Counted from the first letter of the stretch, positions 3,741-62,298 are shown. The stretch is DNA of 64,000 nt from a virus (IMGVR_UViG_3300009031_000221:384001-448000), one strand, 5' to 3'. Numbers and translations: made by a program. Notes: generated by a model not told the origin, from the letters alone.

Positions 3741-4269
3741 GATGTTGTACTCCTACCCGTTGATCCAACGGATGTTTTGTTCACGTTCCGCTCGTTCGAC
3801 CTGAGCCTCATCGGCGAGGCGCATTTCCAGGGCACTCGAGAAGCCCTGACGGGTTGCCTTAGCATCCTCGGCATCCATACGGAACTGTTCAGCGATGGTT
3901 TCCGCCGCGCCAACCCAAGCCTTGGGCGAACGATCGCCCACCGGCAACAGGTCGTAGCATGCGGGATTGAAATTGCCCGTGAACCCGTGCCGGAACGCCA
4001 TGGAACGAAAGACCTCAAATGCCTGACGCCACATTTCCAAGGAGTGGCGCTTCATGTCGAACACGGCTTCTTTATCCTCGGGATGTGGCACGCCGATACC
4101 ATGGGTCTTGCAACGATGCCACGTATCGAACGGGGACAGGAGCCAACCGCCACGGCAAGGGCACGTGTCCGGACGAATCTCGTTCCAAGCGCCCGATTCC
4201 AGTTCACGGTAGATGTCAGCGTTCATCGTAGGTTCCTTCGGGGGCGTCGTCTGCGTCCCCCTGTAGTAT

Positions 4270-4296
4270 ATCTACGCTGCTATCGTGGAAAGTAAG
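4270..4296 (-). promoter_or_regulatory. Conserved promoter motif + leader hairpin
   Basis: CTTACTT-N12-GCGTAGAT; loop CAGACGA. Confidence 0.8.
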
Positions 4297-5466
4297 TCCA
4301 GGCTAGCTATTTGCCGTTTCCTTTGCCGGTTCTTTTGGCGAAATCCCGTAGGCGGCATCCAGCATATGGTCACAGAGGGACCGCACCTTCACGTCGAAGG
4401 TGTCATCCCAACCGGACATCGTACGCCCACGTTCAGCGCGTTCCTCGGCAATGAGTACCTTCAGTCGTTCCGCAAGACTCTGAATTTCATCCATTCGGTG
4501 TGCCATGATTCGCTCCTATACCAAGTTCAGCATGAAGGGTGCCTCAACGGGCTGCAGGTAGAAGGCAACCTGCCCTCCGCCAACCGGGATTTCATTCCAC
4601 ATTTCCCAGTCTTCCCATAGGGTCTGGCTGAGGAGTTGTGCGTTATCCAGGGAACCGAATTGCCCTTCCGCATCCAGGTAATCGCCGTTTCGGTCTACGA
4701 CCGCGTAGCGGAGGTTGATGTTCGTGAACAATGTAGACGCATTGGGGCCGGCGGGCTCTTCCTTGCACTCGGGCCAGATCGTGTACATCAGGTCGATGCG
4801 TTGCCCAAGCGTCAGGTAGTTCCATTCCGCACGGGTCTGCGCCCCATCCGGGTTCACGTACTCGCACCACAGGTTCCAATCGTTGGCAATTTGGAGGTTC
4901 ATCGGACGGGATCGCATGGGTGCTCCTTACAGGGTGTTGTAGAACTGGACGGCTCCATCCCAATCATGAGCCTGTGTACTCAGTACCTGATAGATAAGCC
5001 CTTCCGCGTCTGTATTCTTGACCACCCATAGGGAGTTATAGGCGTCAAGGACAAGGAACTTCATCCGTCCACTGGAATTTTGACCGCACGCAGCAACGAT
5101 ATGCTGCTGCGTATGCCAGTTGAAGATGTCATGCGGCTGAAGGACGTGTCGGGTATCGCGGCTCATGGGTGCTCCTTTAGACTTGCCAAGCCGGGGGCTT
5201 GGGCATTGGGGGAGTCGGTTCCGACCACCACCAACCCGCCCAGTCGATTTCGTTGGCCATCTTGACATTGGTCGTCAATTCGCCGTCAACGATCATGACC
5301 ACGATTTCATGTGCCCGAAGGCCGTCCTGGGTAGCGGTCTGGTAGCGACCCGGCTTGGTCGGCATTTCCTTCTGCCAGTGTCCATCCAAGTACTTCTGCC
5401 ACAAATCTTTCAGCGAAGACGATCCCATGTCCGGTTCCTTCAGGCATCGTTCGTGCCCTGTGATTC

Positions 5467-5493
5467 ATCTACGCTGGAAGGATGGAAAGTAAG
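5467..5493 (-). promoter_or_regulatory. Conserved promoter motif + leader hairpin
   Basis: Exact; GGCA-CGAACGA-TGCC. Confidence 0.8.
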
Positions 5494-6141
5494 TCAATGG
5501 TCATTGACCAGGGTTGCTGCCAACCCAATGGCAATCAGGTTGATGGGGTGTACACGATAGGCGTAGTGCGCCGCCCAGGCATGCTCGAACGGGGTTTCGG
5601 GCTTTCCGCCCTCTGGAACCCGTGCTTCCCGAAAGGCTGCTCGTGCCGCCATTTGCATAGTGCGATTCTTCTCGTCGTATCCTGCCAGAAGCATTGCGAC
5701 TTCGATTTCTTCGAGGTCGCGGTCACCAGCGATCCACTTGTCCGCCCAGTTATGCAGGTCTCCATCCGAAACCCCACCGTGGCATGCTTCCTTGGCACAC
5801 AGGATGCCGAACTTCACGCACTGTTCGTTCGTAGGCTTGGCGAACCCGACGATCTCACGGATCAAGGTCAGTTCCGTAGAACCTCCACGATAGCCGTACT
5901 CGATTCGGGTATCCCCGGAAGCTTCCGCCTCAAACATCCGCATGTTGTTCGATTGAACCTGGTGGTGTTCCGCCATCGGGTTCATGAGGAGGGCAAGCAT
6001 CGGGTCAGGATACCAGTGCAACCAACCCGGGCCGCAAAGGTTTCCTTCACCGCTAGTCGTCGCCTTTTCCCCCAAGGTCCATTGGAACTTGTTGCAAGTT
6101 TGCATGTTCTTGTCGGTCAACTTGTAAACTCGCATGCCCAT
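5494..6141 (-). CDS. Phage protein related to the DUF7666-like paralogues at 32760-34072
   Basis: LCGPGWLHWY...MFEAEASG...STELTLIRE, then KFGILCA...WADKWIAGD. Confidence 0.5.
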   Translation of the reverse strand: MGMRVYKLTDKNMQTCNKFQWTLGEKATTSGEGNLCGPGWLHWYPDPMLALLMNPMAEHHQVQSNNMRMFEAEASGDTRIEYGYRGGSTELTLIREIVGFAKPTNEQCVKFGILCAKEACHGGVSDGDLHNWADKWIAGDRDLEEIEVAMLLAGYDEKNRTMQMAARAAFREARVPEGGKPETPFEHAWAAHYAYRVHPINLIAIGLAATLVNDH

Positions 6142-6750
6142 ACCCTTCTAGTAGTTTGCGTTGTGGTAGACGACATTGACGGCATCAGCCACGGTCATGG
6201 CCTCATAGGGACTCACGTAGCCATGGTATTGTTCCTTGACGAGTTGGTTCAACCGATCCGCTTCGATGACGGCTTCCTCACGGGTCGTGGAAATGAAATC
6301 GAAGGACGTATCATCACATTGCATGACGGTGAACAATTCGGAAGCCGATGTCTTCATGGCGCTACTCCTTGGCCCAGGACTCTGCGGGTTCGTCGGACTT
6401 GGGATCGTTTGCCTTCATGGCATCGGGCATCAACGCCTTGATCCTCACGTTCAATGCGTCGCGCCGCCGCAGCAAATCCCGCATCTCTGCGTCGATAATC
6501 AACGAGTCCTTGCGGGCGTAGAACGCATCGGAGAAGTCCTTTCCGAATAGGTCTGCCAAGAAGCCAATGCGTTCCGCTTCGCAACGTTGCTGCGTGTAGG
6601 CGTCGTAGGCAGCAAACTCCCAATTGGTCATTTCCTCCGCTTTGTCGAAGTAGTTGATCCGCAGGCTACCGGCAGATCTTCCTTTCACAATCAGGTCCGC
6701 ATTCTTCATCGTCAGTTCCTATCTAGGGATCATTCGTCCCCACGCGAAGT

Positions 6751-6777
6751 ATCTACGCTGGATTGCCTGAAAGTAAG
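6751..6777 (-). promoter_or_regulatory. Conserved promoter motif + leader hairpin
   Basis: Exact; GGGA-CGAATGA-TCCC. Confidence 0.8.
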
Positions 6778-7955
6778 CTAACCCGACAAAATGGATGTGG
6801 AGGTTCAGACTCCATGTCAAACGGGGTGCTGATGAATGCCCTAAGTGTGTCGAATAATGATGATCCGGTTGATTCCGCCGTCTTAAAAACCAGTTCCCAG
6901 AATTCTACTTCCGGCAAGAATTCATACCGATCCACAGGGCAAAGGTATCGTATGTAAGGAATGCATCGCCCATCATTACGTGCCTCAAAGGCCCATTCAA
7001 TCAGGGTTGCTTTGTTGGCAAATGCGAAGGCTTCCTTCCACCATGGAAAGTAACTATGTTCCCATAGGAAATGCCGCCCTTGGACGGACAATAGTTGGTA
7101 TTTCTCCCAGAGGGTTGTTTGATCCATGACCTTAGACCACAACCACGGTGCGGAACTTCTTTCCCGCTTGAACCAAGGCGAATGCGAATCCTGAACCCTC
7201 CACGGTAACAAGCATGTCCGCTACCTTGGTATCCAGGCTGATATGCCCGACTGGCACACCGTTGATCTTGACTCCAGGCAATCCCTTCTTCGCATCCCCT
7301 CGGGAATCGAACGGGAACACGGCGAGGTTGCTGAACCCGAACTTTTGACCGTTGATGGTCATCGGTGCCTTGTCGATGTCCTGTTTGACTAGGAGATCCG
7401 CCAACGTCATGTCCTCCGCTTCCTTGTCATGGATCCATGCCGCCCCAACCTTCAGCAAGGCTAGGAGGGTATGGATATGCCATGTAGCGGTGGTAGCCAT
7501 GATCTAATAGCACTCCCGAAGTGTTCCGACGGTCTCGCCCGTTTCCTTGTCAACCACCGCCTGATAGTTGCCGTCCGCGTCCCCCGTAGGAACAACGTCC
7601 GCCTTGTCCAGGAGGGCGCTGGCCTCGTCGATACCCAGAGCACGCCGCATGGCCTCCCAGGTGGACTTGCCGCCCGACTGACGGCCATCTTGATGCTTGT
7701 AGACGTACATGGTTCAATTCCCCCGATAGACGGGCAGGTTGTACTCCGCGGCGAATTCCTCGGCTTCCTGCTTCGTGTTGAAGAAGTCTAACCAGAAGTC
7801 CGTGCCATCGACCTGAACGGCCCAACCGGCTTCTCCGTTCTCATCCGTGGGGTAGATGCGAACCATCACATGTTGGTCCATGTAATTCTGGCGCTGTTGC
7901 ATGACTTCAGTGATGCGCATGGAAGTTCCTTTGTAGGGATCCTCGTCCCTACTTT

Positions 7956-7982
7956 ATCTACGCTGCTAGGGACGAAAGTAAG
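7956..7982 (-). promoter_or_regulatory. Conserved promoter motif + leader hairpin
   Basis: Exact; GTAGGGA-CGAGGA-TCCCTAC. Confidence 0.8.
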
Positions 7983-47483: not shown

Positions 47484-47510
47484 ATCTACGCCAGAGTTTG
47501 AGAAAGTAAG
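47484..47510 (-). promoter_or_regulatory. Conserved promoter motif
   Basis: Exact; longer GGGC...GCCC leader stem. Confidence 0.8.
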
Positions 47511-48353: not shown

Positions 48354-48391
48354 CGTAGATTCCTGATGCGGGCATCCGTGCCCTGCTATCA

Positions 48392-48418
48392 ATCTACGCT
48401 GCCGCGACGAAAAGTAAG
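48392..48418 (-). promoter_or_regulatory. Conserved promoter motif + hairpin
   Basis: Exact; GGGCA-CGGA-TGCCC. Confidence 0.8.
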
Positions 48419-48648
48419 TCCATCATTCGATGCCCTGCATCCGTCCGATAGTACTTCGCTAGGTTGCGAGCTAGCTATACAGGCTCCCGTCAACATCCGA
48501 CCCTTTGCCTTACGGCAAGCCTTCAAGTGATCACGATACTCGGATTGCATTCCCGCATCATCCGTTTCCTGAATCACAGAAACCCAGACGTACGCCGCAA
48601 GTGACCAACGCTTGTTCTTCTCCGCATCCAATGCTTCTTCAAGTAGCG

Positions 48649-49530
48649 TCATAGCACTATCACCAATTTGCCACGCATAGCCCAACGGAATCCCGCATCG
48701 TATGCTTCCTGAGGCGGCTCTTGACTCGTGTGTGCCAAGTAGGTCTTGTTGCGAAGTTCCTCAGGCAAAGCCGCCAGGGCGCTATAGGGACAATGGACAT
48801 GCTTGCCGTCCTTCCCATCCGAATAGAACTGGCAATCGTGGAACATGATATCCGCGTCTTTCCACCAGCCCGAATGCGTAACTGCCGTGTCCCCACTGAA
48901 CACAACCACGCTCTTGCCAACACGGACAATGTATCCGTACGAAGGGAACTTGGTCCCATTCAAGTCCATGACGATGTTGTGGTCTACCACATTCGCAAGA
49001 ACCTCGAAGTCCTCATCCTTTGTCCCGTGGTAGTAGGCACAATCAAAGTAGTCTTGCAATCTAAATGTGCCATGGTTTGCCGCAGTGGATGCCGGGTTGT
49101 GATACCGCAACTCATCCAGTTGTTCAGCAAGCATGTTCCACACATCAGGAGGGGCTACCAAGACAGGCTTGAACTGTTCGATGAACTTGACCCGCCATGC
49201 CAGGGAAGCCAATCCCCCGCAATGATCCGCATGGGCATGCGTGATGCAGATGCCCTTCAGGTTGTGGACAACGGACTCGTATCCAGGCATGCACCCACAG
49301 ATTTGCAGCATCGTTTCCGGGCCGCAGTCAATGAGCCAGAACTTGTGGCTTTCCAACAGCGTGTAGTTATTTGCAGGGAATACCGTGAAGGTACGATCCT
49401 CTGAAGGATACGATGTAACCTTCGGGATGCTATCAACATCCAAGTTCGGGATGATTGCGAAGTTGGTATTGCCGAAGTGTCCCATAGGGACGCCACCACC
49501 ATGACCGAATACGTAAATTCCTGTTGCCAT
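48649..49530 (-). CDS. Metallo-beta-lactamase fold hydrolase (RNase Z-like)
   Basis: LIDCG, THAHADHCGG, FSGDT, HDC, YLAH. Confidence 0.85.
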   Translation of the reverse strand: MATGIYVFGHGGGVPMGHFGNTNFAIIPNLDVDSIPKVTSYPSEDRTFTVFPANNYTLLESHKFWLIDCGPETMLQICGCMPGYESVVHNLKGICITHAHADHCGGLASLAWRVKFIEQFKPVLVAPPDVWNMLAEQLDELRYHNPASTAANHGTFRLQDYFDCAYYHGTKDEDFEVLANVVDHNIVMDLNGTKFPSYGYIVRVGKSVVVFSGDTAVTHSGWWKDADIMFHDCQFYSDGKDGKHVHCPYSALAALPEELRNKTYLAHTSQEPPQEAYDAGFRWAMRGKLVIVL

Positions 49531-49531
49531 G

Positions 49532-50349
49532 TTAATCAATCTCCAAGTCGCGAAACCGTTTACCATCCGGGGTCAAATCCCCCTTGACGGGCTTCTTTCC
49601 CTGAACGGAACCTTGAATGTCGTTCGCCAGTTGCCAATCCCGACCTTCCAACCGGGGCTTCGTGGATGCTACCGCGGGGACATCCTCCGGAATCAATGCT
49701 AGATAATCCCCAAGTTGGAAAAATGCAAGCTCTGCTTGACGCAAGGCCTGCGTAGCCAGATTGGGCAATGCCCTTATTTCTCTCCGTTCATGCGCCAAAG
49801 CCTCTCGTTCTTGCCGCGTGCCTTCCCGAAGTTTCGCCATAGCATTACGGAGATCCGTGTTTTGCTTCCGTAGATCCTTGTTGGATGCCATGAGGTCGGC
49901 GTTTTCTTCAGTCGGGCTGCGGGTTAGAAGTTTGTTCTTTTCCTTCAGGCCATTGATGACCCTTTGCGAATGCGCCACATCATCCATATGTCACTTTCGA
50001 GTTTTGCAATCCGTTTCAGGAGGAACTCTTTGCTATTTACGTCAATCGGAGGAGGCATGACCCGCTTGGCTGACGTGTAGGATGCATTGTTAGGAGTACG
50101 AGGGAGAATGGAATTCGCTTCGGGAAACACCTCACCTTGCACCTCCCATCCAGATGTATACGACCGAGTGACATACTTACGGGCATTTATGACTTCAGCC
50201 ACTTCGCCATTATCCGCATCTACAACAGTTATGGCTACCTGTTCAAGGTCTTCATCCCCTGGATCGTCCATCTCGGCTTCCCAGAACGCATCTATCGAGG
50301 CATCCTCCCGGTAGACGGAACGGGCTTTGTTTGTACGCTTCGGAGGCAT
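49532..50349 (-). other. Two hypothetical CDSs: 49532-49987 (coiled coil) and 49945-50349
   Basis: ORF track plus packing. Confidence 0.55.
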
Positions 50350-50357
50350 GACGGGCT

Positions 50358-51467
50358 CTACTTCTCCTTGGCGAGGTACTGCGGAGAACGCTGCTTGAGG
50401 ATGAGCCGGCGGTTGCTACCGTTGGGCCACAGAACGGTCTGTTCGACCATCGGCTTGATGACAATGCCTTCCCGCAGACGGTTGGGATCCAGGACGGACT
50501 TGCCGTTGCTGGCTTCCGCAATCGTACGCCCCGCCAGCCAATCCCGTAGGGTCACACCCTGAGCGAGAACGGGGACACGACGGGCTTCCGGGATGTACCG
50601 TAGCCAATCATCCACACTCAGGTAATCCGTGCCGACCTTGATGTCGAAGCACCGGAGTTCCGCCGTCTTCAGCCCGTAGATGTTCTTTTGGACGCCAGGG
50701 CCGATGAGTTCGGAACGGATGGCAACGGCAGCAGCCGGGAACGTCGGAGCCGGAATGTCCTTGACAACATCCAGGAACCCGGACTTGCGGGCGCAATCCC
50801 AGTAGGTGTTCGGTTCCCCCGGGATTTCCTCGATTTCGCAGGTACGGGTCAGGACGGCAAGCCGACCATCATCCGTACGGACGCAAGCCGTGTTCGTGCC
50901 CTCGAGCTTCTCCGTGACGCACACGGGGATATCCATCAGGAGGTCAACAATCTCCAGGTAATTGTCCGCCCCCTCCAGGTCGTACACGCCAACGCATTCG
51001 ATCATAGGGTGCATGACGGCACCGGGGAACATGGATTCCGGGGCATCGTACTTGCGAACGCCTAGCAGGAGGGTTACGTCCGTCCCGATCAAGGTATCCG
51101 CATCGATGATGGGGAGTTCCTTCGCCGGAGCGATCATGCCCTGGGAAATCTCCCCACGCATGACGCATGTTCTCAGACGGTTTTGTTCCACACCGACCAG
51201 CATGGTCTTGGTGACACGACCCATATCGTCACGGGTGACAACACCCGCTTCATCCTTGCCCCACAGGCCAAGGGCGTCGATGATCCACTGGGGCAGGAGG
51301 CTGTCAACGGGGAAGTAGACAACACGTTCGCCCTCAGTGTAGACGCCCTTTTGGATGCAGAACTGGTAGGCCAGCCCCTTCACGGACGCCAGTTCAAGGC
51401 GGTCAGCGGAAGGGTGCGGCCAAATACGGTCGATGGTACGAAGGGTGACTTGGAACGTGCTTGCCAT
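50358..51467 (-). CDS. RNA ligase, DRB0094-like family
   Basis: PHPSADRLELA N-terminal domain, TEKLEGTN, ELIG, REGIVIKP, LILK. Confidence 0.88.
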   Translation of the reverse strand: MASTFQVTLRTIDRIWPHPSADRLELASVKGLAYQFCIQKGVYTEGERVVYFPVDSLLPQWIIDALGLWGKDEAGVVTRDDMGRVTKTMLVGVEQNRLRTCVMRGEISQGMIAPAKELPIIDADTLIGTDVTLLLGVRKYDAPESMFPGAVMHPMIECVGVYDLEGADNYLEIVDLLMDIPVCVTEKLEGTNTACVRTDDGRLAVLTRTCEIEEIPGEPNTYWDCARKSGFLDVVKDIPAPTFPAAAVAIRSELIGPGVQKNIYGLKTAELRCFDIKVGTDYLSVDDWLRYIPEARRVPVLAQGVTLRDWLAGRTIAEASNGKSVLDPNRLREGIVIKPMVEQTVLWPNGSNRRLILKQRSPQYLAKEK

Positions 51468-51476
51468 ATTTACCTC

Positions 51477-51734
51477 TCAGATGTCGTCTTGACATTCTTG
51501 CCGACATGCTTTGCAGCACCGGCACAGGGTTTTCTTGTTGTTGACATCCATGGAGTACGGGCACGTGTGCTCATCCTCCGTGCCTTCCTTTCCGCACTTG
51601 CAACGAGGCGTGCTAAAATGATCAGGGATCCCCCGTGTCTGCCGGGACGGAATTCCTCGAGTCTTGTTGGAAGGGATCCCCCGTGTCTTGTTGTCTGGGA
51701 TGCCTCGAGTCTGATTGTTCGGACGGTCATTCAT
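51477..51734 (-). CDS. Small protein with four xxTRGIP repeats and a C-terminal Cys cluster
   Basis: QTRGIPDN-KTRGIPSN-KTRGIPSR-QTRGIPDH; HTCPY...CRCC..C..EC. Confidence 0.7.
   Translation of the reverse strand: MNDRPNNQTRGIPDNKTRGIPSNKTRGIPSRQTRGIPDHFSTPRCKCGKEGTEDEHTCPYSMDVNNKKTLCRCCKACRQECQDDI
51618..51713 (-). repeat. Four 24-bp imperfect tandem repeats (A-B-A-B)
   Basis: Units 51618-51641, 51642-51665, 51666-51689, 51690-51713. Confidence 0.85.
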
Positions 51735-51771
51735 AAGGGTGCCTATCACCCATCGTCTGTGGGCGTGACCT

Positions 51772-51798
51772 ATCTACGCTCCTAATGGCGAAAGTAAG
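51772..51798 (-). promoter_or_regulatory. Conserved promoter motif + hairpin
   Basis: Exact; CCCA-CAGACGA-TGGG. Confidence 0.8.
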
Positions 51799-51800
51799 TC

Positions 51801-53591
51801 CTAGCGATGTGCTTCCAATGTGCCCAGATCCGTAGAATGGTAGCAATTGCAATTGGCATTATGGAATATCGAATCCATCGGCTTCCACACCATCAATGAG
51901 GTCCACAGAATCTTCCCCAAGGGTACGTCATTAATCAATCGGGGATTCACCAAGTTCGTATCCGGGTGTGCCTTCTGACATGCTACCTGGCATGCAGGTA
52001 TGAACTCTCGACTGAGATTCTGAAGATCCGTGGTACGAATCGATACCACCTGGATCAGAATCACGATAATGGCAATCAAGGTCAAAGACCCGTAATCCTT
52101 GAGCCACTTCTTTACCCTTTCCATATCTATTCCTCCAAGTCTGGGCCAATCAGGGATGCGACACGGCTTTCCCCAATATGAAATGCTTGATCCCTCAGAT
52201 TCTGTGCAGCACGGCGAACGATATCGATGTTCCCCTTACCCCGAATAACGTACTTCCCACTTAGGACATGCTGTGGCACAGGAGTACTTCCCGTTCCATG
52301 CTTAGTGGATACCACAGCTTCCCAGGACTTTCGCCAACATGCCTTGTGCAATTCAAAGGCTTGCTCAACGAACTCTAGGGGGATACCCCATTCGTCAGCA
52401 TAGTGTTGCGTAGGGTGCGGCTTCTCCATGGAAGCCTTTACCCGCTAGACAGGAAAAGACTGGCTAGCGATCCAGGCAGACACTTTGCGCTGAACGGAAG
52501 GGATGGCTTGGAATGAGTACAGATCATGGAATGATGTTGGACCCAAAGCAGCCATACGCGGACCCCAAACGGCCTGAAGATATGCGGGATTGATATTGAC
52601 GATGTGATCCGGCACGTAGATTGTCACGCCATCGGTATCCATTTCCATCTCATCGAAGCGGATGCCATCTGCTTGAAGCATAGCCTGCAGCATGTCCCCG
52701 TCTTCCCTTCCCATCAAAGCCGTTTCGTCACCTGTGAGGTAATCCGCCAGATCAACCGTTGCCACGTCATTCTCCTGTATTGAGTGCATTCAAGAAACCC
52801 TCTAAACAATACCCAAGTTATTCGCCGAATGGGCACGCTTCCTTGAGGTGGTAAGTCATATCGCCTTCTTCAGGACGAAAACTCTCAGGGTCAGCATCGT
52901 AACGAGCTTCTACCCGGGTCATGTCCCCAACGATAGGAAGCATGAGCAGTACCTTCGTAGGACATCGCTCTGCCCCCATGGCATGACCATCCCCAAGGGC
53001 GATAGCAGCCGTACAAATCCGGTATCCCGTGTGAACGTGAACGGTAGATCCCTTGGTAATCATGCCGCTGCCGCCACTTCGCGAAGGTCAAGGTGCTCAT
53101 CGCTGTAGGGACGGTCGATGGATGCCATGCCGGAGTTCGTACGGCAGTGGATGTCAACCGTGGGGCTTTGCATGAGGTACGCCAGGGGCAACTCATAGGT
53201 TTCCACCATGAGTGCAGCACCAGGGCTGGTCGTACCGATGCAGGTTGCCATGATGTGTGGGCGTGCCATCTTGGCATACACGGCACCCTTGGAATCGGGA
53301 GCGGTGAATCCAAGGATGATCGCATCACTGTACGCATCCAATGCAACACGAATGGTCTGCCCCGCCTGGAAAACCCGGCCGTCAGGAGCAATCACGGATG
53401 TCTTGCTGTAGGACTCGCTCATGATGTCCAATCTCCTACTTGGTGGGGGTGCAAACCTTTTGTGCCGCAATCAGTTCCCGAATTTCCACCCGGGTGACGT
53501 AACCTTGAAGGGCTAGGGTTGCAACAATACCGATTGCACACATGCACATTGCAAACTTGATGTCTTTCAGTTCTTTCAGAATGGCATCCAT
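51801..53591 (-). other. Run of ORFan CDSs: 51801-52124, 52127-52429, 52445-52789, 52818-53063, 53060-53422, 53436-53591
   Basis: Dense packing. Confidence 0.6.
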
Positions 53592-53624
53592 CGTCGTTCC
53601 CCTGGGAATCCGTTCCCGCACCCT

Positions 53625-53651
53625 ATCTACGCTGCTTGTTTGGGAAGTAAG
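53625..53651 (-). promoter_or_regulatory. Conserved promoter motif + hairpin
   Basis: Exact; GGGAA-CGGA-TTCCC. Confidence 0.8.
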
Positions 53652-54169
53652 CCCCGCTGATACAAACAAGCATGTACCCTGGATTGAATAGACGTTTGCA
53701 CCAAGTCCCACCCATACCGAGTCAAATCAGGCCGTTTGTGAGGAGACATAATCAGGATTGCGGGAGACACACACCCTAGTTGATGAAGCAACATCGGCAT
53801 CCAGGATGGATCAAGCAAATGCATCGCATAGCTGCAGCACGCCAAGGAATAGCTACCCGTAATCCCGTTCGATGCGATGGATTGGAAGGACAACGGAATG
53901 GCATCCTGTCCCGTTCGTTCCTTGTAGGCTTGCCCTGTGTAGGGATCTATCCCGGTGGCATGTCCCCCGAGGGATTTCACTTCTAGCGTGATTTCCCCCG
54001 AACCGCAAGCCAAATCCAGCACGTTGGTCAAATCGAGATTCCAATCTTGGACGCATTGCCGAAAGCATGCACGGACAATAGCCTCATGCGGGTTCCTATA
54101 GGTTCCACCATCCTTTTGGTAGAACCCAGCGACACCCTGTTGCACGTACTGGCTCCGAATGCTATTCAT
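53627..54169 (-). CDS. Class I SAM-dependent methyltransferase
   Basis: VLDLACGSGE, GIDPY. Confidence 0.8.
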   Translation of the reverse strand: MNSIRSQYVQQGVAGFYQKDGGTYRNPHEAIVRACFRQCVQDWNLDLTNVLDLACGSGEITLEVKSLGGHATGIDPYTGQAYKERTGQDAIPLSFQSIASNGITGSYSLACCSYAMHLLDPSWMPMLLHQLGCVSPAILIMSPHKRPDLTRYGWDLVQTSIQSRVHACLYQRGLLPKQAA

Positions 54170-54938
54170 TGCTGGGGAACCCTTGATTCATATGTTGCGC
54201 CGTTCGAGTTATCCAACTTTTGAATTGATCTACGGACATTGTTCCTTTGCCCCTATTGCATGTAATGCAGCATGAAACAACATTTCCTAGTTCATATCCT
54301 TTATCGTTGTCTACACGATCAATCCCTGTGTAAACAATGCCGCCGTTCCGACCGTGTTTTGATGGTATTACATTTGCTGGAGGAGCCCCACAGTAGTAGC
54401 ATAATCCGCTAACAAGCTCCTTAAACTCCAGAACCCCCAATGTGAATGCTAAATGTCGTTTTCTAGCACTTGCTCTATAAGTGCCAAGCAATGCGTTCCA
54501 CGCGGCTACTCCTTTAGGCAATGACCGGGATGAATTTTGGGCTTGGATTCGGGCTCGTTGAAAACATCCGCAGCTTAGAGTCGCCCCAGAGGCTAAATGC
54601 GTAGTTCGAATTCCTACCTCAGATCCACAATCACATTTACACCACCATACTATCCGGGGCTTTGGCACTTTGTCGGACATCTTTTGAACTTCCCGGCGCA
54701 ATACAACAAGTTTGCCAAACCGGTGACCTGTTAAGTCAGTATAAGGCTTCACTCCAATATCCGCCCGAAGACACCCACAACTCTTAGTTCGTCCGATCCG
54801 CAGGGAATTCATGAATACAACGACATGATTGCCGCAGTCGCACGCACATTCCCAGTAGGCCACCCCTTTACGGGGGATTCGTTCTATCGCAACTAATCGC
54901 CCAAATCGTTGCCCCGTTAAGTCCTTAACTTTCCGCAT
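54162..54938 (-). mobile_element. HNH homing endonuclease with two DLTGxRFG...CxCDCG...SCGC repeats
   Basis: CYYCG, GIDRVDNDKGY..GNVVSCC..CN. Confidence 0.85.
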
Positions 54939-54996
54939 TATGAACTCCGCACATACCTTTATTAGGTTGTCCGCTAATGGACGTGCGATAACTCCA

Positions 54997-56612
54997 CTAT
55001 TGGAAAGATTCAGGCACCAAACGCCGCATTCTAGCGTAAGTGGCTTGAATTGCAAACATTTGTCTTTTCACATGATCGTCCGTCATCGAGGTACTCCAGG
55101 CTGGCCACGTCAATTTCTTGCGTAGCCCTTCGTAGGCGGCAGCCGCAATCGCTTCCTGTGCATTCAGGTGCCGAACGTAGCCCAAGGCCGTGGCATTCCA
55201 CTTGGCCATCTCGATCCAGCGGGTATGTGCGTTGGTCACACGCTTGATGATTTCCTTGGCACGAGGGCTCAAGGTGGGATCATCTACCGCTTTGGGCACG
55301 CGATTGTCTTCGATGAAGTAGTGGAATGCGTTTCCTGTCATGGGCTCCTCACAAATCAAGGGTGCAGAACTCCACCTGAACCTTGGAATCATCCTCGGCA
55401 AAGGTGTAGGCGTTCTTACCGGGCAAGTAGGGATGCGGGACGATGCCCGTCACGGTGCCGACCTGGAGGTTGGACTTGAAGGGCTTGCCGGAGATCTTGC
55501 GAACCCGCTGTCCAACCTCAACCAAATTCTTTTCACGTCTCGGCATGGTTTCCATCTCCCTGTTCAATCTACGCGGGTTGCGTACGAAGTAAGTCTAGAC
55601 CAAGTAGGCGATGACAGCGATGGACGGCACCACGTTGAAGCGCTTGTAGGATGCGTGATGGCACACCTCCGTCACGCGGAGGAACACGCAGTTCCCGTCT
55701 TGAAACTTCAGCAAGGACTCCGGCAAGAGCGGGTTTCCCACGCCGAAGAAGAGGAGTTCCCCCTTCGCGGGCTTCTCGGCGAGTTCCAACTCGATATCGC
55801 CGAATTCGATGATCCCACGAAAGAATGACATTTTACGCACATTGACGCTGACCTTGACCATGATGTTGAACTCCTACTTGGCCTTGGGGGCCTTGGTGGA
55901 TTTGCCCATGGCAGCCTTGACGGCAGCCACGACGAAGGTCTTCTTGTGGGTCTTCAGGCCGATGCCGAAGGCCAAGCAGAGGACAGCCTGCAAAAGGGTG
56001 TGATACGTTTCCGCATTGTCCCCTTCCAGTTCACCCGGATCCCCGATCCCGTCCATCTTCGTCGCCATGCTCAGCAAGAGCTTGCGAACTTCGGGGTCTT
56101 CATAGCCCTCGGCCTCGATCATCGGGACGATGCGTTGGCTGTCCATCGCCAAGTCAAGAAAGTTTTTCAACACAGGCTGCTTCATGTTCATGCTCCTCGA
56201 GGGGTTAGACCGCCTCGTCAATTCGCAGATCCGCACCGGAGTAGCCGTCCGTGGACACCCGGCAATTCAGGCCTTCCAGGCAAACCAGTTCGCCCATGGC
56301 CACTTCCTGGACGGTCTTGCCACGCTGGGCGTACCGTTCCGACATCGTGAGGCGGTCATCCGCGATGATGACGCATTCCTCGGACAGGCCGAAATCCTTG
56401 CCGCCAACCTCGCGATTGTGCGCCTTGAAGGTATCCAGGCTCAAATCCCACGGGGCGGGCTTGGAGAAGTTCGCATCCGGCCACCGGGCCTGCGAGGCCT
56501 TCAGGGATTCCTGCGAATCCTTGTAGAAGCCGCCGATGGTGTAGGCGCGATACCAACCGCGTCCCTGGATGTGGAGGATGTCACCGTGATTGAGGGTCTT
56601 GAGGTCACTCAT
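54997..56612 (-). other. Run of ORFan CDSs: 54997-55341, 55349-55549, 55595-55861, 55874-56185, 56205-56612
   Basis: Dense packing, two promoter copies. Confidence 0.6.
55567..55593 (-). promoter_or_regulatory. Conserved promoter motif
   Basis: Exact. Confidence 0.8.
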
Positions 56613-56656
56613 GTTCGTCTCCAGGCGGGCTAGTCGTTTGCAGCCCCCTATGTATC

Positions 56657-56683
56657 ATCTACGCTGATGGAGGCGAAAGTAAG
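56657..56683 (-). promoter_or_regulatory. Conserved promoter motif
   Basis: Exact; GGGGCT...AGCCC leader stem. Confidence 0.8.
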
Positions 56684-57220
56684 TCACGCCTCAACCGATT
56701 TGAAGCATTCTTTGTGATACAAACGGCTTACGCTCAGCTTAAGCCGCGTATCGGCATCCTTGCCCCGAATCCACACGGCAGGGGCATCCACGTCAATGTA
56801 CTTGCCGCATGCACCACAGGCAGTCATGGAATTGCACGTAATGTCGATGGCGACATGGTTCAGGATCTTGGGCTGCGGCTTGGGCGCCTGACGCATTTCC
56901 ATCATCCGTTCAATGGATTGCAAACCCCGCCTCATCTTGTCGCCCTCGGTGGTATTCGAGGTGTGGATGCGAATCACCGGCGGCATGTAGGTAGAGCATG
57001 TGGCAACCTGCTCCTCAATCCACAGGAACACGGCATAGCCCTCACGGGGGCGCCCGTCCGCATCGGGAGGCAAACCCAGGTCGTTGTCCAAGCTGATCTC
57101 GTCAACCAGGCCAGGAACCTTCAGCAATTCGATGGTTGCCTCAGGCGTGTAGGTACGCACCCAATCCAGGGTGACACCCGCTGCCTCCGGGGTACGCTCA
57201 TCATCAAGGAACAACTTCAT
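56684..57220 (-). CDS. Cyclic-phosphate-processing receiver-like domain protein
   Basis: KLFLDDER, EISLDNDLG, IRIHTSN. Confidence 0.75.
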   Translation of the reverse strand: MKLFLDDERTPEAAGVTLDWVRTYTPEATIELLKVPGLVDEISLDNDLGLPPDADGRPREGYAVFLWIEEQVATCSTYMPPVIRIHTSNTTEGDKMRRGLQSIERMMEMRQAPKPQPKILNHVAIDITCNSMTACGACGKYIDVDAPAVWIRGKDADTRLKLSVSRLYHKECFKSVEA

Positions 57221-57435
57221 TTCGAATCCTCCGTTCGTTCCACGATTTCCAGGTTCGCACATAGGCATTCGCAATCACCCATCTTGTCCAGATAGGCGTA
57301 TGCCTTACCTTCCACCTTCTCGATCCGGTTCGTCTTGATGACGAACGTATGATCCCTGACCTTCAAGGCGGCAAGGTAGGCCTTATCGATATCCCCACGT
57401 GCCGTGAATGTTGCACGTTCCATTCTCTCTTCATG
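57217..57435 (-). CDS. Hypothetical protein, first gene of the leftward unit
   Basis: GAGGAA RBS after promoter 57468. Confidence 0.6.
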   Translation of the reverse strand, partial: HEERMERATFTARGDIDKAYLAALKVRDHTFVIKTNRIEKVEGKAYAYLDKMGDCECLCANLEIVERTEDSK

Positions 57436-57467
57436 TCCATTCCTCGAGGGCATCGTGCCTACGTTCT

Positions 57468-57494
57468 ATCTACGCTGTTCCCACAAGAAGTAAG
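57468..57494 (-). promoter_or_regulatory. Conserved promoter motif, leftward member of the divergent pair
   Basis: Exact; GGCA-CGA-TGCC. Confidence 0.8.
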
Positions 57495-57508
57495 TGTCCT
57501 ATGCGTGA

Positions 57509-57535
57509 CTTACTTTCCTACCCATCAGCGTAGAT
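57509..57535 (+). promoter_or_regulatory. Conserved promoter motif, rightward member of the divergent pair
   Basis: Exact; GGGCG-ATGA-CGCCC. Confidence 0.8.
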
Positions 57536-57940
57536 GATACATGGGCGATGACGCCCTCCTAAAGGAACGACGATGAACACGGGAAGCTTGGTCAATCTCC
57601 TCACGGCGAATACTCCCAACACCGTCAAGCCGGAACCCGGTGTCGGCGCAACCCTCCTGTCCTGGACGGATCGCCACGCTGGAACCATCGAGAGGGTCGA
57701 GGGAAAGCGTCTTTGGTGGAAGCGGGACACTGCGACCCGCACGGACAGCAACGGCATGTCGGAATCGCAGGCATACACCTTCGAGCGCAACCCCGATGCC
57801 TCCGAGCAACTGTTCACCCTGCGTCCGAATGGTCGTTGGGTTCAGAAGGGTTCGCCCATGAAGTCCGGGTGTTGCCTGTCCATCGGACACCGTTCCCAGT
57901 ACTTCGATTACAGCTTCTAAAGAATTCTTTCCGAAGGGCA

Positions 57941-57967
57941 CTTACTTTTCCCATCGACAGCGTAGAT
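57941..57967 (+). promoter_or_regulatory. Conserved promoter motif
   Basis: Exact; identical to the copy at 60325. Confidence 0.8.
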
Positions 57968-58588
57968 GGTATGTGGGCACCGAACGCCCCTCAACACACA
58001 CAAGGAACCTGACACCATGAAGAACCTCAAGAACGTCACCCCCCGCGGCAGCAACGACAACGACCAGGGTCGCAAGAACAGCGGCAAGAAGTCATTCGAC
58101 GGGGGCATCCATCGCGGTTGCACCAAGCCCACGAAGTTCAAGGATCGTCGCGTTGTCGAGTGGCGCTAAGCCGCAAGGCCTTACACGGAACCTGGGAGAC
58201 GACCGATGAATGATGAATTGTGGACGAAGCGGGACGGGACGACCATCAAGGTGTCCGAAATGACGGAAGACCACTTGCGGCGTACCGTGAAGATGGTTTC
58301 CAACAACCGGCGCTTCGACCTGGTGGTCGATGAAATGTCCGTGGAAATGTGTCGCGGATGGCTGTGCGATTACCTCAAGACCAAGCGGGAATTGGTGGAA
58401 TCGATCGATGCCTTGATGTTCGCCTTGTTGGAGGTAACGGGAGAGGTTGCTTACGCATAGAGGAACGTCATGAAGGCACACGCCAAGAATCGCCGTGATA
58501 CCAAGACCAACAACAGCCCCGTTCGTGGGGCTCGTGGCGGGGATCGTGCCGCTGCCAAGCGTGCCATCCTGGCGGATGTACGGTAGCA

Positions 58589-58615
58589 CTTACTTTCCCT
58601 TCTAGCAGCGTAGAT
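58589..58615 (+). promoter_or_regulatory. Conserved promoter motif + hairpin
   Basis: Exact; loop CGAAAGA. Confidence 0.8.
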
Positions 58616-59065
58616 GTAATACGGGACGCGAAAGACGCCCCAAGGAACCTACGATGCAACTTTCCCGATACAAAATCCTCACGGGGCCGCTGGCGGGTCA
58701 AATCGTGACGGCTCATCAACTTGAGCGTCGGGCTACCCCCACGTCGGAACTGGACAACGCACTAGGGAGCGGTATCTGGATCCCTTCATTGGGCGTGCGG
58801 GTTGCTGCGGATCAGGACGCCTACAGCGTTCCCTCGGCATATGTGGATCTGGTTGTCCCCTTTGACCGATTCAATCAGGAAATCTTCATCGGGGATACCC
58901 TTCATGCGGCATCGAAAGCAGCCGTCATTCGGGTCAAGGTTACGGGAATTGGCAAGTCCCATTGGGATAGCGGGCACAAGCGGAAACTCCGTGTCCAAGA
59001 CATCGACTCCGGGGCCACGTTGACCATCAACAACCCCGCCCACTGCATCAAGATTGTCTAGGGGA

Positions 59066-60076
59066 ATGATCATGGATCAAGCAGTCACAACTGAATCACA
59101 CGGCAAGTTGGCTTGCCTCAACTGGCAGACCCTGTCGGATGAGCGTGCCGCAACCGTCAAAGCCAATGGGAAGCTCCGTAGGGCTGCCCTCATCATGACG
59201 GGCAAATGCAACTTCGCATGTCCCTACTGCAAGACCCTGGGCGGGGACAGAGCCCCCACACGAACGAAATTCGATACCATGGCCAAGGTCATGAACATGA
59301 TCAACCACGGTCTCAAGGAACTCCGCCTGTCCGGTGGTGAACCTACGATGATTTCATGGTTGCCCGAGTTGGTTGCCATGGCTCATAGCAATGGCGTTCG
59401 CGTTGCCGTATCCTCCAATGGCTATGCTCCCGTCCGTATCTACGCAGCCCTGGTCAACGCCGGGGTTGCGGAGTTCTCGATTTCATTGGACTCCACGGAT
59501 CCCGAGGAAGCGGATCGCCTTGCCGGCGGACGAAAGAACGTTCTGGCCCGGGTCGAACGTACCATCAAGGCAGTGACGGACATGGGTGCCAAGGTCTACA
59601 TCGGCATGACGTGCTGTGCATCTCGTCGGAATCCCGAGGAAATGAAAGCCATCATTGACCGGGTTGCAGCCTTGGGCGCTACGGATGTCAAAATCATGTC
59701 CCTGGCTCAGGAAGGAACCATCGTTGATATGTCATGGCTGGATGATGCCACGGCAAAGCGGTTCCCCTTCCTTGCATGGCGGGCACACAACTTCAATGAC
59801 GGTCGGGATGTTCGGGGACTCCGTGAGGGTGATTCGCCCCGTTGTTCCCTTGTCCTGGATGACGTGACGATTGCGGGAGATAAGCACTTCCCCTGCAACG
59901 TGTACTTCCGTGAGGGAGGGGAAGCCATCGGGGACGTGAAGGATTCCGCTACCATGTTGGCGGATCGTGCGGTGTGGGCTGAAAACCACAACAGCCTTTG
60001 TGACCCGATCTGCAAGTCCATGTGCATGGATCTGCTCCGTACGTACAACAACCGCGTTGAGGAATTGAACACATGA
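59066..60076 (+). CDS. Radical SAM protein with C-terminal Cys cluster
   Basis: CNFACPYC, SGGEPT, SSNG, SISLD. Confidence 0.9.
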   Translation: MIMDQAVTTESHGKLACLNWQTLSDERAATVKANGKLRRAALIMTGKCNFACPYCKTLGGDRAPTRTKFDTMAKVMNMINHGLKELRLSGGEPTMISWLPELVAMAHSNGVRVAVSSNGYAPVRIYAALVNAGVAEFSISLDSTDPEEADRLAGGRKNVLARVERTIKAVTDMGAKVYIGMTCCASRRNPEEMKAIIDRVAALGATDVKIMSLAQEGTIVDMSWLDDATAKRFPFLAWRAHNFNDGRDVRGLREGDSPRCSLVLDDVTIAGDKHFPCNVYFREGGEAIGDVKDSATMLADRAVWAENHNSLCDPICKSMCMDLLRTYNNRVEELNT

Positions 60077-60649
60077 AACTGCAATGGTTGCCCAGACCTT
60101 CGACGGATCCCTATGGTTGTGGGTGGGAACTCGCAACCAATGACCGTCAATACCTCACCTATGATGGATTCGATCGCTTCGGGGACATCCGGGCCACTGT
60201 CATGGAAGAATCCACGGACAAATGGGTCGCGTACATTACATGGAAGGTCGATGAGAATCCTCCGAATGCCGAATGCAAGAAGGATGCGATGCTTTTGGCG
60301 GAAAGCAAAATCGAAGACGAGTGACTTACTTTTCCCATCGACAGCGTAGATGATACATGGGCACGGACGATGCCCTAGGACGCAGACGATGAACCCACAC
60401 ATGCCGCGATGCCAATGTGGCCACAGTTTCCTCAACCACTGGGCACCCCCTGACCGTTTCCGCCCTGCCAACACACCTTGTAAGGATTGTGATTGCGCCA
60501 GCTACCGCGGGGTGGTAGACGCAGAGCACCTGGCCCTCCTGCAACCAGAACTGCAACGACGCGGCGTGACGCCAAAATGTGATTGCAACGTACAAATCCA
60601 AGCGTTGGAAAAGAGAATTCAGGCCCTTGAAGCCCGACTGGCTCGATAA
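60073..60649 (+). other. Two hypothetical CDSs: 60073-60324 and 60389-60649 (Cys-rich)
   Basis: ATGA overlap; promoter plus leader. Confidence 0.6.
60325..60351 (+). promoter_or_regulatory. Conserved promoter motif + hairpin
   Basis: Exact; GGGCA-CGGACGA-TGCCC. Confidence 0.8.
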
Positions 60650-60659
60650 GGAAACTACG

Positions 60660-61238
60660 ATGTACAAGACTGGCTCCGGCCCCCTCAAGCGCGGCGAACT
60701 TCACGAGGTTCCCCCGGCAGCGGAAAACATGGGCATCCGTGCCCTGCGGGAAATCCCTTACCTCAGCTGCACCTCCGTTGACATCAACGAGGTTGACCAC
60801 ATCGGCCACGATGAGGGCGGTGTGGACATGGATCCCGCCTACCAGCGTGGGCACGTGTGGGAACCCGCTCAGGAGTCCGCGTTCGTTGGCTACCTGCTCA
60901 AGGGCGGCAAGGCTGGCCCGATTTGGGTCAACCGCTACGAGGATGCGACCACGGGCGGCGCCAACTGGTTCGACCTCCCCGTCACCATCATCGATGGCAA
61001 GCAGCGCCTGACCGCCCTCATCCACTGGACGCAGGGGGAAATCCCCGCGACCCTGAACGGAAAGGACATCTGGTACAAGGACTTGTCCATCATCGACCGT
61101 CGCATGCTCCCGCACCTGGATGTGTGCTACGTCAACATGACCGAGAACGACCAGATGCGGCTCTACCTGAACCTCAACAGCGGCATCGCCCACACCACGG
61201 ACGAACTCGACCGGGTTCGCGGCTTGCTGGCGGAATAG
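60660..61238 (+). CDS. DUF262 domain protein
   Basis: PAYQRGHVW, IIDGKQRLTAL, YLNLN. Confidence 0.85.
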   Translation: MYKTGSGPLKRGELHEVPPAAENMGIRALREIPYLSCTSVDINEVDHIGHDEGGVDMDPAYQRGHVWEPAQESAFVGYLLKGGKAGPIWVNRYEDATTGGANWFDLPVTIIDGKQRLTALIHWTQGEIPATLNGKDIWYKDLSIIDRRMLPHLDVCYVNMTENDQMRLYLNLNSGIAHTTDELDRVRGLLAE

Positions 61239-61241
61239 GCA

Positions 61242-61268
61242 CTTACTTTCGCCCCTAGCAGCGTAGAT
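61242..61268 (+). promoter_or_regulatory. Conserved promoter motif + hairpin
   Basis: Exact; GGGCA-CGGATGA-TGCCC. Confidence 0.8.
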
Positions 61269-61306
61269 GTAATGCGGGCACGGATGATGCCCCGAAGGAA
61301 CCGGAC

Positions 61307-61537
61307 ATGGCATACCTTGATGAAGAGCGGTACGAGCGGGAAGTGGATCGCTGGGCGGGTTACGAACAGTTCGCCAATCCGGGTGGCAATTCCGCCCTCC
61401 GCAAGGCTACCCGTTCCAACCCCCGTATCCACCCTTGCCCGACCTGCAAGCAGCCGAATCGTCTGACGGCCAAGGACAAGGCACATGGCTATTGCTGTGA
61501 CCCGTGTGCGGATCGCACCGAACGAGGCGGCTACTAA
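61307..61537 (+). CDS. Small zinc-finger protein
   Basis: PCPTC...CCDPCAD. Confidence 0.65.
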   Translation: MAYLDEERYEREVDRWAGYEQFANPGGNSALRKATRSNPRIHPCPTCKQPNRLTAKDKAHGYCCDPCADRTERGGY

Positions 61538-61540
61538 TCT

Positions 61541-61942
61541 ATGTATGGTAAAGGATCCAAGATTATAGCGAAAACCTACATGAAAGCCCTGCGGGATCGT
61601 ACGGTTTGCGCTATATGTGGTCGGCAGCCTGTAGACTTTCACCATAAAGATCCCGACGCCAGTAAAGATAGATGGATAGCACACCTTACGGTCTTAGGGT
61701 TTCCAATCCCACGAATTGAAGCCGAACTAGCGGTATGTGAACCCCTTTGCCGCTCATGTCATATGAAACAGGATGGTAGATTAGCATTTCTGAACGCCAA
61801 CAAACCGTTTCCTAAAGGGGTGCAGTTACCTCCGAAGCCCTGTACGTCATGTGGTATCCCCGCCAAGCCCCTGCGTAAAGGGCTGTGTAATAAGTGCAAT
61901 CACCAAAAGCGTAGGGATAGCAAACGTAATGCTATCCTATAG
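61541..61942 (+). CDS. HNH-like endonuclease
   Basis: CAICG...DFHHKDP...LCRSCH. Confidence 0.7.
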   Translation: MYGKGSKIIAKTYMKALRDRTVCAICGRQPVDFHHKDPDASKDRWIAHLTVLGFPIPRIEAELAVCEPLCRSCHMKQDGRLAFLNANKPFPKGVQLPPKPCTSCGIPAKPLRKGLCNKCNHQKRRDSKRNAIL

Positions 61943-61969
61943 CTTACTTTCGGCTCTATCAGCGTAGAT
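61943..61969 (+). promoter_or_regulatory. Conserved promoter motif
   Basis: Exact. Confidence 0.8.
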
Positions 61970-62002
61970 GATACATGGGCACGATTCCCAAAGGAACCTA
62001 CG

Positions 62003-62221
62003 ATGAACACCTCCCTTATCACGTTGCCCCGAATCATCACCGTACCGGGTCGCTACGTCACGCGAATCGGTGAGACCGTCACCATTGGCATCATGGGGAA
62101 GCGTCGTTTCTACGGGGCGTGTGGGCACTATCCCAATGGCGTCCCGGAGAAGTGGGACGTGTCGGGACGCCTCCTGCCCTTTTCGTTGTCGGACAACGAT
62201 ATCGTTCGGGCGGCGAACTAG
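62003..62221 (+). CDS. Hypothetical protein
   Basis: AGGAACCTACG-ATG leader. Confidence 0.7.
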   Translation: MNTSLITLPRIITVPGRYVTRIGETVTIGIMGKRRFYGACGHYPNGVPEKWDVSGRLLPFSLSDNDIVRAAN

Positions 62222-62227
62222 GCATGA

Positions 62228-62254
62228 CTTACTTTTCGTTCTAGCCGCGTAGAT
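62228..62254 (+). promoter_or_regulatory. Conserved promoter motif + hairpin, drives PARP
   Basis: Exact; GGGCA-ACG-TGCCC. Confidence 0.8.
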
Positions 62255-62298
62255 ACCACATAGGGCAACGTGCCCTCCAAACGAGAGGAACAAAGAAC

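Follow-up and report, generated by a model that had tools for sequence, protein, structure and literature searches.

In T4-type phages, PeSL cassettes, each consisting of a promoter, a G/C-rich stem-loop, a Shine-Dalgarno sequence, and a start codon, occur in many copies. The stem-loop, which either lies between the two promoter boxes (−35 and −10) or overlaps the −10 box, terminates upstream transcription, and shuffling of these cassettes via their conserved flanks has been proposed (Arbiol et al. 2010, PMC2839356; Comeau et al. 2014, PMC4122927). Stem-loops at the 5′ terminus also stabilise bacterial mRNAs, RppH needing unpaired 5′ nucleotides (reviewed in PMC3997798; Emory et al. 1992 cited there). 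The element described here is a hairpin that recurs in the 5′ leaders of a huge phage, between a bipartite promoter and the ribosome-binding site, and that often bears a seven-base loop (heptaloop) of the form C-R-R-A-Y-G-A. The window analysed is a stretch of 64,000 nucleotides (nt), IMGVR_UViG_3300009031_000221:384001-448000 (G+C 54%), belonging to a 536,053-bp record of a single IMG/VR virus rated complete; no close GenBank phage match to the window was returned by megablast. The hairpin holds a fixed position behind the promoter, its stem varies with pairing preserved, its loop is conserved across phage lineages, and it is linked to one sub-class of the promoter.

The promoter has two halves, CTTACTT-N12-GCGTAGAT, of which 94 exact copies are present genome-wide, compared with 0 in a back-to-front control. 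With one mismatch allowed per half, 123 copies were found, all with the same spacing, against 1 in the reversed sequence; the window holds 31 copies. Across IMG/VR, the exact pattern gave 34 matches only, all single and chance-like. The first 210 kb of the genome, which house the portal, the terminase, and very large structural-type open reading frames (ORFs), contain 9 of the 123 promoters, and the promoter class therefore serves non-structural genes. Most of the 123 promoter cassettes precede small ORFs without a Pfam match. The central positions of the N12 spacer carry ~0.2 bits and are nearly random, and an identical spacer is common to five promoters. Stop codons of upstream genes (TAG or TGA) often abut the −35 box, directly before CTTACTT.

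All 11 hairpins listed in a preliminary description of the window, nine of them on the minus strand, are present at the coordinates given there, and each was found where that description had placed the element, between promoter and ribosome-binding site. The order of such a leader is the promoter box, 6–9 nt, the hairpin, a few nt, an AAGGAAC-type ribosome-binding site, and the start codon, with the hairpin ending 1–8 nt upstream of the ribosome-binding site and ~11–17 nt upstream of the start codon. A start-site hairpin follows ~23 of the 31 promoters in the window, 13 having the seven-base loop or a near form and ~10 having short or other loops (Table 1); the earlier estimate of about half of the leaders was thus a fair one.

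Genome-wide, a search by structure alone found a G+C-rich stem-loop at 69 of the 123 promoters, beginning 5–10 nt after TAGAT; the start falls at 6–9 nt in 63 of the 69 and at 6–8 nt in 58. The mean folding energy of nt 6–36 after TAGAT (−6.95 kcal/mol) is lower than that of shuffles (−4.99 kcal/mol; P 6e-11) and that of random genomic 31-mers (−4.59 kcal/mol; P 3e-14). The energy dip is confined to the leader offset: 31-nt windows at −120 to −60 and at +80 to +200 have means of −4.5 to −6.0 kcal/mol, and at +40, the ribosome-binding region, structure is below average. A covariance model of 30 copies (R1), which was too short for diverged or bulged copies, recovered its seeds and little else, and found no convincing copy of the motif away from a promoter. 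This limitation of the hairpin to promoters fits a role at the 5′ end. The only strong extra match of the model, and the one good copy that does not stand immediately at a start site, is a tandem second hairpin, ACGAGG-CAGATGA-CCTCGT, at genome position 458861 (L155:10961-10979, plus strand), ~20 nt past the first hairpin of the promoter at genome position 458786. An orphan GGGCA-CGGA-TGCCC hairpin at window positions 60731-60744 (minus strand), without an upstream promoter and inside overlapping long ORFs, is probably a chance occurrence or a relic.

The loop was examined both with and without its stem. When a stem of 4 or more pairs is required, the genome (both strands) holds 39 strict C-R-R-A-Y-G-A loops, 21 of these within 20 nt downstream of a promoter, compared with 8 and 0, respectively, for a reversed-loop control. 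Regardless of stem, the first 30 nt after promoters contain the loop word 38 times where 5 would be expected, with a cluster at 11–16 nt; at least 4 of 6 flanking pairs are formed in 29 of these 38 words, compared with 15% of 1369 other occurrences. When seven-base loops were picked by structure alone, 18 of 22 were C-R-R-A-Y-G-A. Four loop positions do not change (C1, A4, G6, and A7), and most differences at positions 2, 3, and 5 are transitions; CAGACGA is the commonest motif loop in the 536-kb phage.

A resemblance of some copies to the CsrA/RsmA core had been noted in the preliminary description, with the reservation that other copies lack it, and this is borne out: the GGGCA-CGGAYGA copies fit the CANGGANG core, and the resemblance is confined to CGGAYGA loops. 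It is nevertheless most improbable that the hairpin is a host CsrA/RsmA-type site tuning translation through GGA in the hairpin loop. Among the copies listed, GGA is present in fewer than one-third of the motif loops of the phage's own genome, AGA, GAA, and AAA being equally accepted, and CAAATGA is dominant in a related phage (G006, below). In addition, a second GGA covering the ribosome-binding site is lacking, and the family search for CsrA (PF02599), in which controls matched, found none in the phage genome.

Covariation was measured on 30 gap-free copies from six phages, the seeds of which were chosen for pairing; the loop-word flank counts and the structure-only loop search given above are the unbiased counterparts of this set. 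Standard pairs fill 87% of the cells, compared with 62% after partner shuffling, and the covariation score is 0.74, compared with 0.25 for shuffled copies (0 of 500 shuffles reaching 0.74) and 0.11–0.25 for slid registers. Stem letters do change with pairing kept, as had been claimed, the stems seen being GGGCA/TGCCC, GGGGA/TCCCC, CCCA/TGGG, GGGCG/CGCCC, CCGGG/CCCGG, TCCGAG/CTCGGA, and CCCGCC/GGTGGG. Shared ancestry of the leaders, which the preliminary description had named as a possible source of spurious covariation, is unlikely to explain the motif: recent duplication does not account for it, because the central spacers are nearly random and the downstream genes are not paralogues (1 paralogous pair among 120 promoter-proximal downstream proteins), and the loop survives alongside a different −35 box.

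The same stem data bear on whether the element might act as DNA, either as an operator, its inverted repeat bound over the start site by a dimeric repressor, or as an N4-type hairpin extruded in single-stranded DNA. The GGGCA-N7-TGCCC palindrome does sit where repressors act, and the wobble test described below does not favour RNA. However, the half-sites turn unrelated yet complementary (GGGCA, GGGGA, CCCA, TCCGAG, CCCGCC) while the asymmetric spacer is conserved, the reverse of what a duplex operator shows; stem length varies and bulges are present; and in N4-type promoters the hairpin is located on the upstream side of the start and its loop has 3 nt. A DNA-level element is thus quite improbable.

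Relatives were reached through the PARP-like gene at 62299-63855, which has a graded series of 245 homologues; a split-ligase half used as query gave no match, TerL relatives at 48–59% identity (five records searched) are without the CTTACTT promoter, and a family search for Terminase_6N found no match in the phage genome. The same promoter and hairpin are present in three phages with PARP 78–83% identical (L127, which comes from a 520-kb contig; L132; and L133), with the loops CGGATGA, CGGACGA, CGAATGA, CGAACGA, CAAACGA, CAAATGA, CAGATGA, and CAGAAGA and stems that are often longer and bulged. At 69% PARP identity, L129 (a 528-kb relative) and G006 (a 126-kb IMG/VR fragment) have the promoter GGGATCATC-N14-AGTAG (25 copies against 0 in the control), and a GGGG-CAAATGA-CCCC-type hairpin follows 12 of the 25 promoters, 9 nt past GTAG as in the 536-kb phage; the loops of this lineage are 8 CAAATGA plus CGAATGA, CAAAGGA, and GAAAGGA. 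A third −35 box, GGCTTAG, is found in L134, together with one copy of CCCGCC-CAAATGA-GGTGGG. The motif is largely or wholly missing from G008, L128, and the complete 315-kb G009, and G001, another complete genome, is without the hairpin too. In one family of orthologous leaders, the loop class is kept in four phages (CGAATGA, CAGAAGA, CAAACGA, CAAATGA) and the stems differ, and in another orthologous pair a G-C pair of the stem is swapped to C-G.

A −10-like box, (C/A)GTAG, and its spacing are kept across the related huge phages, and the −35 boxes differ by lineage: CTTACTT in the 536-kb phage, GGGATCATC in L129, G006, and G008, GGTTCAGGT in L128, and GGCTTAG in L134. This suggests lineage-specific forms of sigma region 4 or of activators. 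A clear sigma-70-family protein is encoded by L128 and by a 530-kb relative, and not by the 536-kb phage. The leader of the PARP-like gene in L128, a relative with 65% G+C, is of a different design at the orthologous place: its hairpin (L128:9960-10003), GGGTGT/ACACCC, has six pairs and holds the Shine-Dalgarno sequence AAGGAG as its loop, two bases before the start codon. Just upstream of the PARP-like gene, L129 carries type I-C-like cas genes (Cas3, Cas5d, Csd1, Cas7) and a Cas12f/TnpB-like gene (L129:581-8839), and TnpB-like genes lie near the PARP-like gene in L133 and the 530-kb relative too.

The hairpin is tied to one of two promoter sub-classes, which are defined by an A or a T two bases before CGTAGAT. 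Heptaloops follow 22 of the 57 promoters with A before GCGTAGAT, compared with 1 of the 40 with T (Fisher P 2e-5), and hairpins of any kind follow 43 of the 57 A-promoters and 14 of the 40 T-promoters (P 1e-4). In G006 the trend has the same direction, although the numbers are small (9 of 15 for A, 0 of 5 for T). Hairpin leaders mostly have AAGGAAC as ribosome-binding site, and hairpin-less leaders have GGAGG, almost at the transcript start. Ten genes after heptaloop leaders were scanned, and these include those for an ArdC-like anti-restriction protein and a staphylococcal-nuclease homologue, the other 8 of the 10 having no Pfam match; CAGACGA leaders also precede both halves of a split DNA ligase. 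Sampled genes after hairpin-less leaders encode a dephospho-CoA kinase, a nucleoside deoxyribosyltransferase, a cytidylyltransferase, and an AAA ATPase. These differences hint at two temporal or functional gene classes, with and without the hairpin.

Two units of this promoter class are followed by something other than an ORF. At L157:4800-5058 (minus strand; genome ~492500-492758), a standard promoter precedes an RNA that starts GTGC-CGGATGAT-GCAC, after which comes GGGGC-GTTCGATT-CCCC, resembling a tRNA T-arm; neither ARAGORN nor Rfam gave a match to this unit. At L132:1086-1170 (plus strand), the promoter is followed by a sequence resembling a tRNA 3′ half (T-arm GTGGG-TTCGAGT-CCCAC, then ACCCCACCA).

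Hairpin-less promoters are informative about the transcription start, their Shine-Dalgarno sequence beginning 6–8 nt after TAGAT and their start codon lying at 16–20 nt. From these very short leaders, transcription is predicted to begin within ~6 nt of TAGAT, upstream of the hairpin, and nt 5–8 after TAGAT follow Y-R-T-R, compatible with a start region. Family searches of the phage genome gave no match for RNA polymerase beta or for a T7-type RNA polymerase, the latter search being without a positive control, and only very weak sigma-like ORFs, with no orthologue of the L128 sigma; host core polymerase is therefore presumed.

Taken together with the promoter linkage, these observations lead us to favour, tentatively, a class-specific 5′-terminal mRNA stem-loop that would shield the 5′ end and dock a putative factor. 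Host RNA polymerase with a host (or very diverged phage) sigma would start within the interval given above, such that the G+C-rich stem-loop would form the extreme 5′ end of the mRNA, with 0–4 unpaired nt ahead of it, and the paired end would hinder 5′-end-dependent decay (by RppH/RNase E or by RNase J). In one promoter sub-class, the loop would be held to C-R-R-A-N-G-A as a docking site for a putative trans-acting factor, which would give the class a common stability or translation fate. RNAfold predicts that a C1-G6 pair closes an RRAY tetraloop, with A7 bulged. The loop is asymmetric, is always in the sense orientation, is better conserved than the stems, and has outlived replacement of the −35 box, a pattern opposite to that of a duplex operator and not readily attributed to drift; in our reading, it may be read in RNA by a factor common to the lineages.

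Several points weigh against this reading. The predicted start site is drawn from promoter geometry and from the very short hairpin-less leaders. Single hairpins are modest (−5 to −10 kcal/mol, z −1.4 to +0.3) and individually not significant; the evidence is their recurrence at a fixed position. A strand test comparing G-U with A-C mismatches gave 17 versus 14 and then 35 versus 32, that is, no strand asymmetry, and, as this wobble test is uninformative, the proposed RNA-level action is argued from the asymmetric loop, from its constant orientation, and from the operator model having failed. Searches of the phage genome by protein family found no candidate loop-binding protein, S1 and bS21, like CsrA, giving no match. 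Unlike classical phage translational operators, the hairpin leaves the ribosome-binding site and the start codon uncovered. Finally, ~30 of the 69 hairpins have unrelated loops, and the orthologous PARP leaders, including those of four other phages, always have a hairpin, with differing stems and with the loops ACG, GCTTGA, ACACCGC, CGAACGA, and ACTGAC, making the loop dispensable at least there. The stem-loop is therefore the more general requirement, with the heptaloop strongly preferred but not obligatory.

The many hairpins with unrelated loops at the same position are also what would be expected of a purely structural 5′ stabiliser or insulator, in which the stem alone matters and the loop is common through descent of the cassette and recombination between the promoter and ribosome-binding-site flanks. 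Whole hairpins appear to have been exchanged among phages at the PARP leaders, five promoters share a spacer, and 5′ hairpins are known stabilisers. This explanation is possible but on balance unlikely, since the spacer centre near the loop is almost random, yet C1, A4, G6, and A7 are fixed; the variable loop positions change mostly by transitions; the loop persists across lineages despite different −35 boxes and stems; and paralogy among the downstream proteins is limited to the one pair.

A more specific form of the docking idea is that the heptaloop serves as a lineage-wide "own-message" tag, by which a putative phage protein would read C-R-R-A-N-G-A at the 5′ end of one temporal mRNA class and give it selective protection or translation during host-message shutdown. 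This is speculative and rather unlikely; if true, bacterial viruses would have an equivalent of TAR- or boxB-type 5′ RNA signals, present on dozens of transcripts per genome and retained through the replacement of the −35 box. Three other readings of the loop were considered and dropped. Wobble pairing to a fixed RNA partner (5′-UCGUUUG), which the transition-only variation of the loop might have reflected, was abandoned because relatives have A or G at loop position 5, and a decoy ATG at the loop/stem border because the ATG is lost whenever the stem changes. An anticodon arm has five pairs and a seven-base loop with U at position 33; mimicry of it fails, the base at that position being a purine here.

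The surroundings of the leaders bear on an effect on the elongating polymerase. In window positions 42001-62000, neither sigma-70-type promoter-like sites (9 versus 13.9 expected) nor terminator-like sites (14 versus 17.7 expected) are enriched, and none of the latter is a listed leader hairpin; without such enrichment, transcription may run on from one unit into the next. A boxB-like or put-like element, in which the newly made hairpin would modify the elongating polymerase by itself or together with a small phage protein (antitermination or anti-Rho), finds some encouragement in the five-pair stem and purine-rich loop straight after the promoter, as in the nut boxB of lambda and P22, in loops ending GAAGA or GACGA, and in each unit having its own copy. 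It is doubtful all the same: there is no boxA-like linear element, the loop has 7 bases and not 5, terminator-like sites are not enriched in these 20 kb, the very short transcription units leave little to antiterminate, and the hairpin is missing from about half of the promoters.

Table 1. Leader hairpins of the window, with their promoters, and the regions used to compare −35 boxes in relatives. Leader coordinates are window positions; hairpins on the minus strand appear as the reverse complement on the plus strand.
Feature	Position	Strand	Promoter	Score or energy
Long stem, bulged A, loop CAGACGA	4240-4261	-	4270-4296	16.5 bits
GGGCA-CGAACGA-TGCCT	5442-5458	-	5467-5493	24.1 bits
TGGGGA-CGAATGA-TCCCTA	6724-6742	-	6751-6777	25.4 bits
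TAGGGA-CGAGGA-TCCCTA, six-base loop variant	7934-7951	-	7956-7982	
GGGCA-CAGATGA-TGCCT	24792-24808	-	24816-24842, TAGCT variant	
Divergent, AGGGC / GCCCT, 13-base loop	28065-28087	-	28095-28121	
AGGGGA-CAGACGA-TCTCCT, one G-U pair, before C-terminal half of split DNA ligase	38473-38491	-	38499-38525	
AGGGCA-CAGACGA-TGTCCT, one G-U pair, before N-terminal half of split ligase	42058-42076	-	42085-42111	
GGGGCG-CAGACGA-TACCCT, imperfect, 5/6 pairs	43832-43850	-	43859-43885	13.5 bits
AGGGCA-CAGACGA-TGTCCT	44590-44608	-	44616-44642	
Long 35-nt hairpin, same position, unrelated loop	47445-47479	-	47484-47510	-14.1 kcal/mol
GGGCA-CGGA-TGCCC, short-loop variant	48370-48383	-	48392-48418	13.4 bits
CGCCCA-CAGACGA-TGGGTG, stem letters swapped G to C, pairing kept	51747-51765	-	51772-51798	
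GGGAA-CGGA-TTCCC, short-loop variant	53604-53617	-	53625-53651	
Extended, loop CAAACGA closed by G-C, bulged T	56622-56650	-	56657-56683	-13.8 kcal/mol
GGCA-CGA-TGCC, minimal variant	57449-57459	-	57468-57494	
GGGCG-ATGA-CGCCC, short-loop variant	57543-57556	+	57509-57535	
GGGC-ACCGAAC-GCCC, seven-base loop outside motif	57975-57989	+	57941-57967	
GGGACG-CGAAAGA-CGCCCC, one A-C mismatch, A at loop position 5	58623-58641	+	58589-58615	14.1 bits
GGGCA-CGGACGA-TGCCC	60359-60375	+	60325-60351	24.9 bits
GGGCA-CGGATGA-TGCCC	61276-61292	+	61242-61268	24.1 bits
TGGG-CACGATT-CCCA, non-motif loop	61976-61990	+	61943-61969	
GGGCA-ACG-TGCCC, before PARP-like gene	62263-62275	+	62228-62254	
Regions of −35 comparison	L129:9600-21000; G006 (L164-L170); L128:10000-12300; L134:1200-17400			

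The hairpin and its promoter provide a testable piece of regulatory grammar for uncultivated huge phages, in which gene expression is essentially unknown. The parts of this grammar are a bipartite promoter with a lineage-specific −35 box, two promoter sub-classes, and a conserved 5′ hairpin on one of them, at about 29 transcripts in the 536-kb phage and many more in relatives. Should a factor indeed read the loop, the element would amount to a regulon-wide post-transcriptional switch in megaphages and would supply a compact RNA-protein pair. Even as a stabiliser only, the hairpin would still mark transcription starts and temporal classes and would thus aid genome annotation.

With respect to known systems, no Rfam family was matched, either across the window at gathering scores or, with the threshold set at E<=1, in 57400-62400, and the element is filed as a promoter-linked 5′ leader hairpin outside any named family (not CsrA, boxB, PeSL, Rfam, or terminator). 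In common with CsrA/RsmE sites, the CGGAYGA copies show GGA in a loop near the ribosome-binding site; here, however, what is conserved at that place is R-R-A and not GGA, the Shine-Dalgarno sequence carries no second site, and csrA is missing from the phage. The boxB of lambdoid nut sites, which is bound by N, has a five-base GNRA-like loop and a boxA partner and is present in two copies per genome, serving long operons. A five-pair G/C-rich stem, a purine-rich loop, a location in promoter-proximal RNA, and reading by shape and loop would be common to both, whereas the loops here have seven bases or are 3–4-base variants, and the only conserved neighbour is AAGGAAC at Shine-Dalgarno distance. 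The MS2 and PP7 coat-protein operators, read by a dimeric protein, also combine a short stem, a bulged A, and a small conserved loop, and the predicted outline with C1-G6 paired and A7 bulged is similar; those operators, however, enclose the start codon of the gene that they repress, and each genome has a single one. Intrinsic terminators differ in that the hairpins here precede a purine-rich ribosome-binding site and have no U-tract.

The ompA, papA, and Bacillus subtilis aprE stabilisers (PMC3997798) have a hairpin a few nt from the 5′ end, where the element here is predicted to lie, with the ribosome-binding site close behind, as here, and an expected block to RppH/RNase E or RNase J; they are single-gene elements with no shared loop, whereas here a whole promoter class is involved and the loop motif is conserved between lineages. 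The nearest described system is PeSL. Here the hairpin lies 6–9 nt downstream of the −10-like box, inside the predicted transcript, without a U-tract or T-run and with a conserved loop; both systems nevertheless have a repeated cassette, here in 123 copies, before small genes of unassigned function in plastic regions, with flanks that could mediate shuffling.

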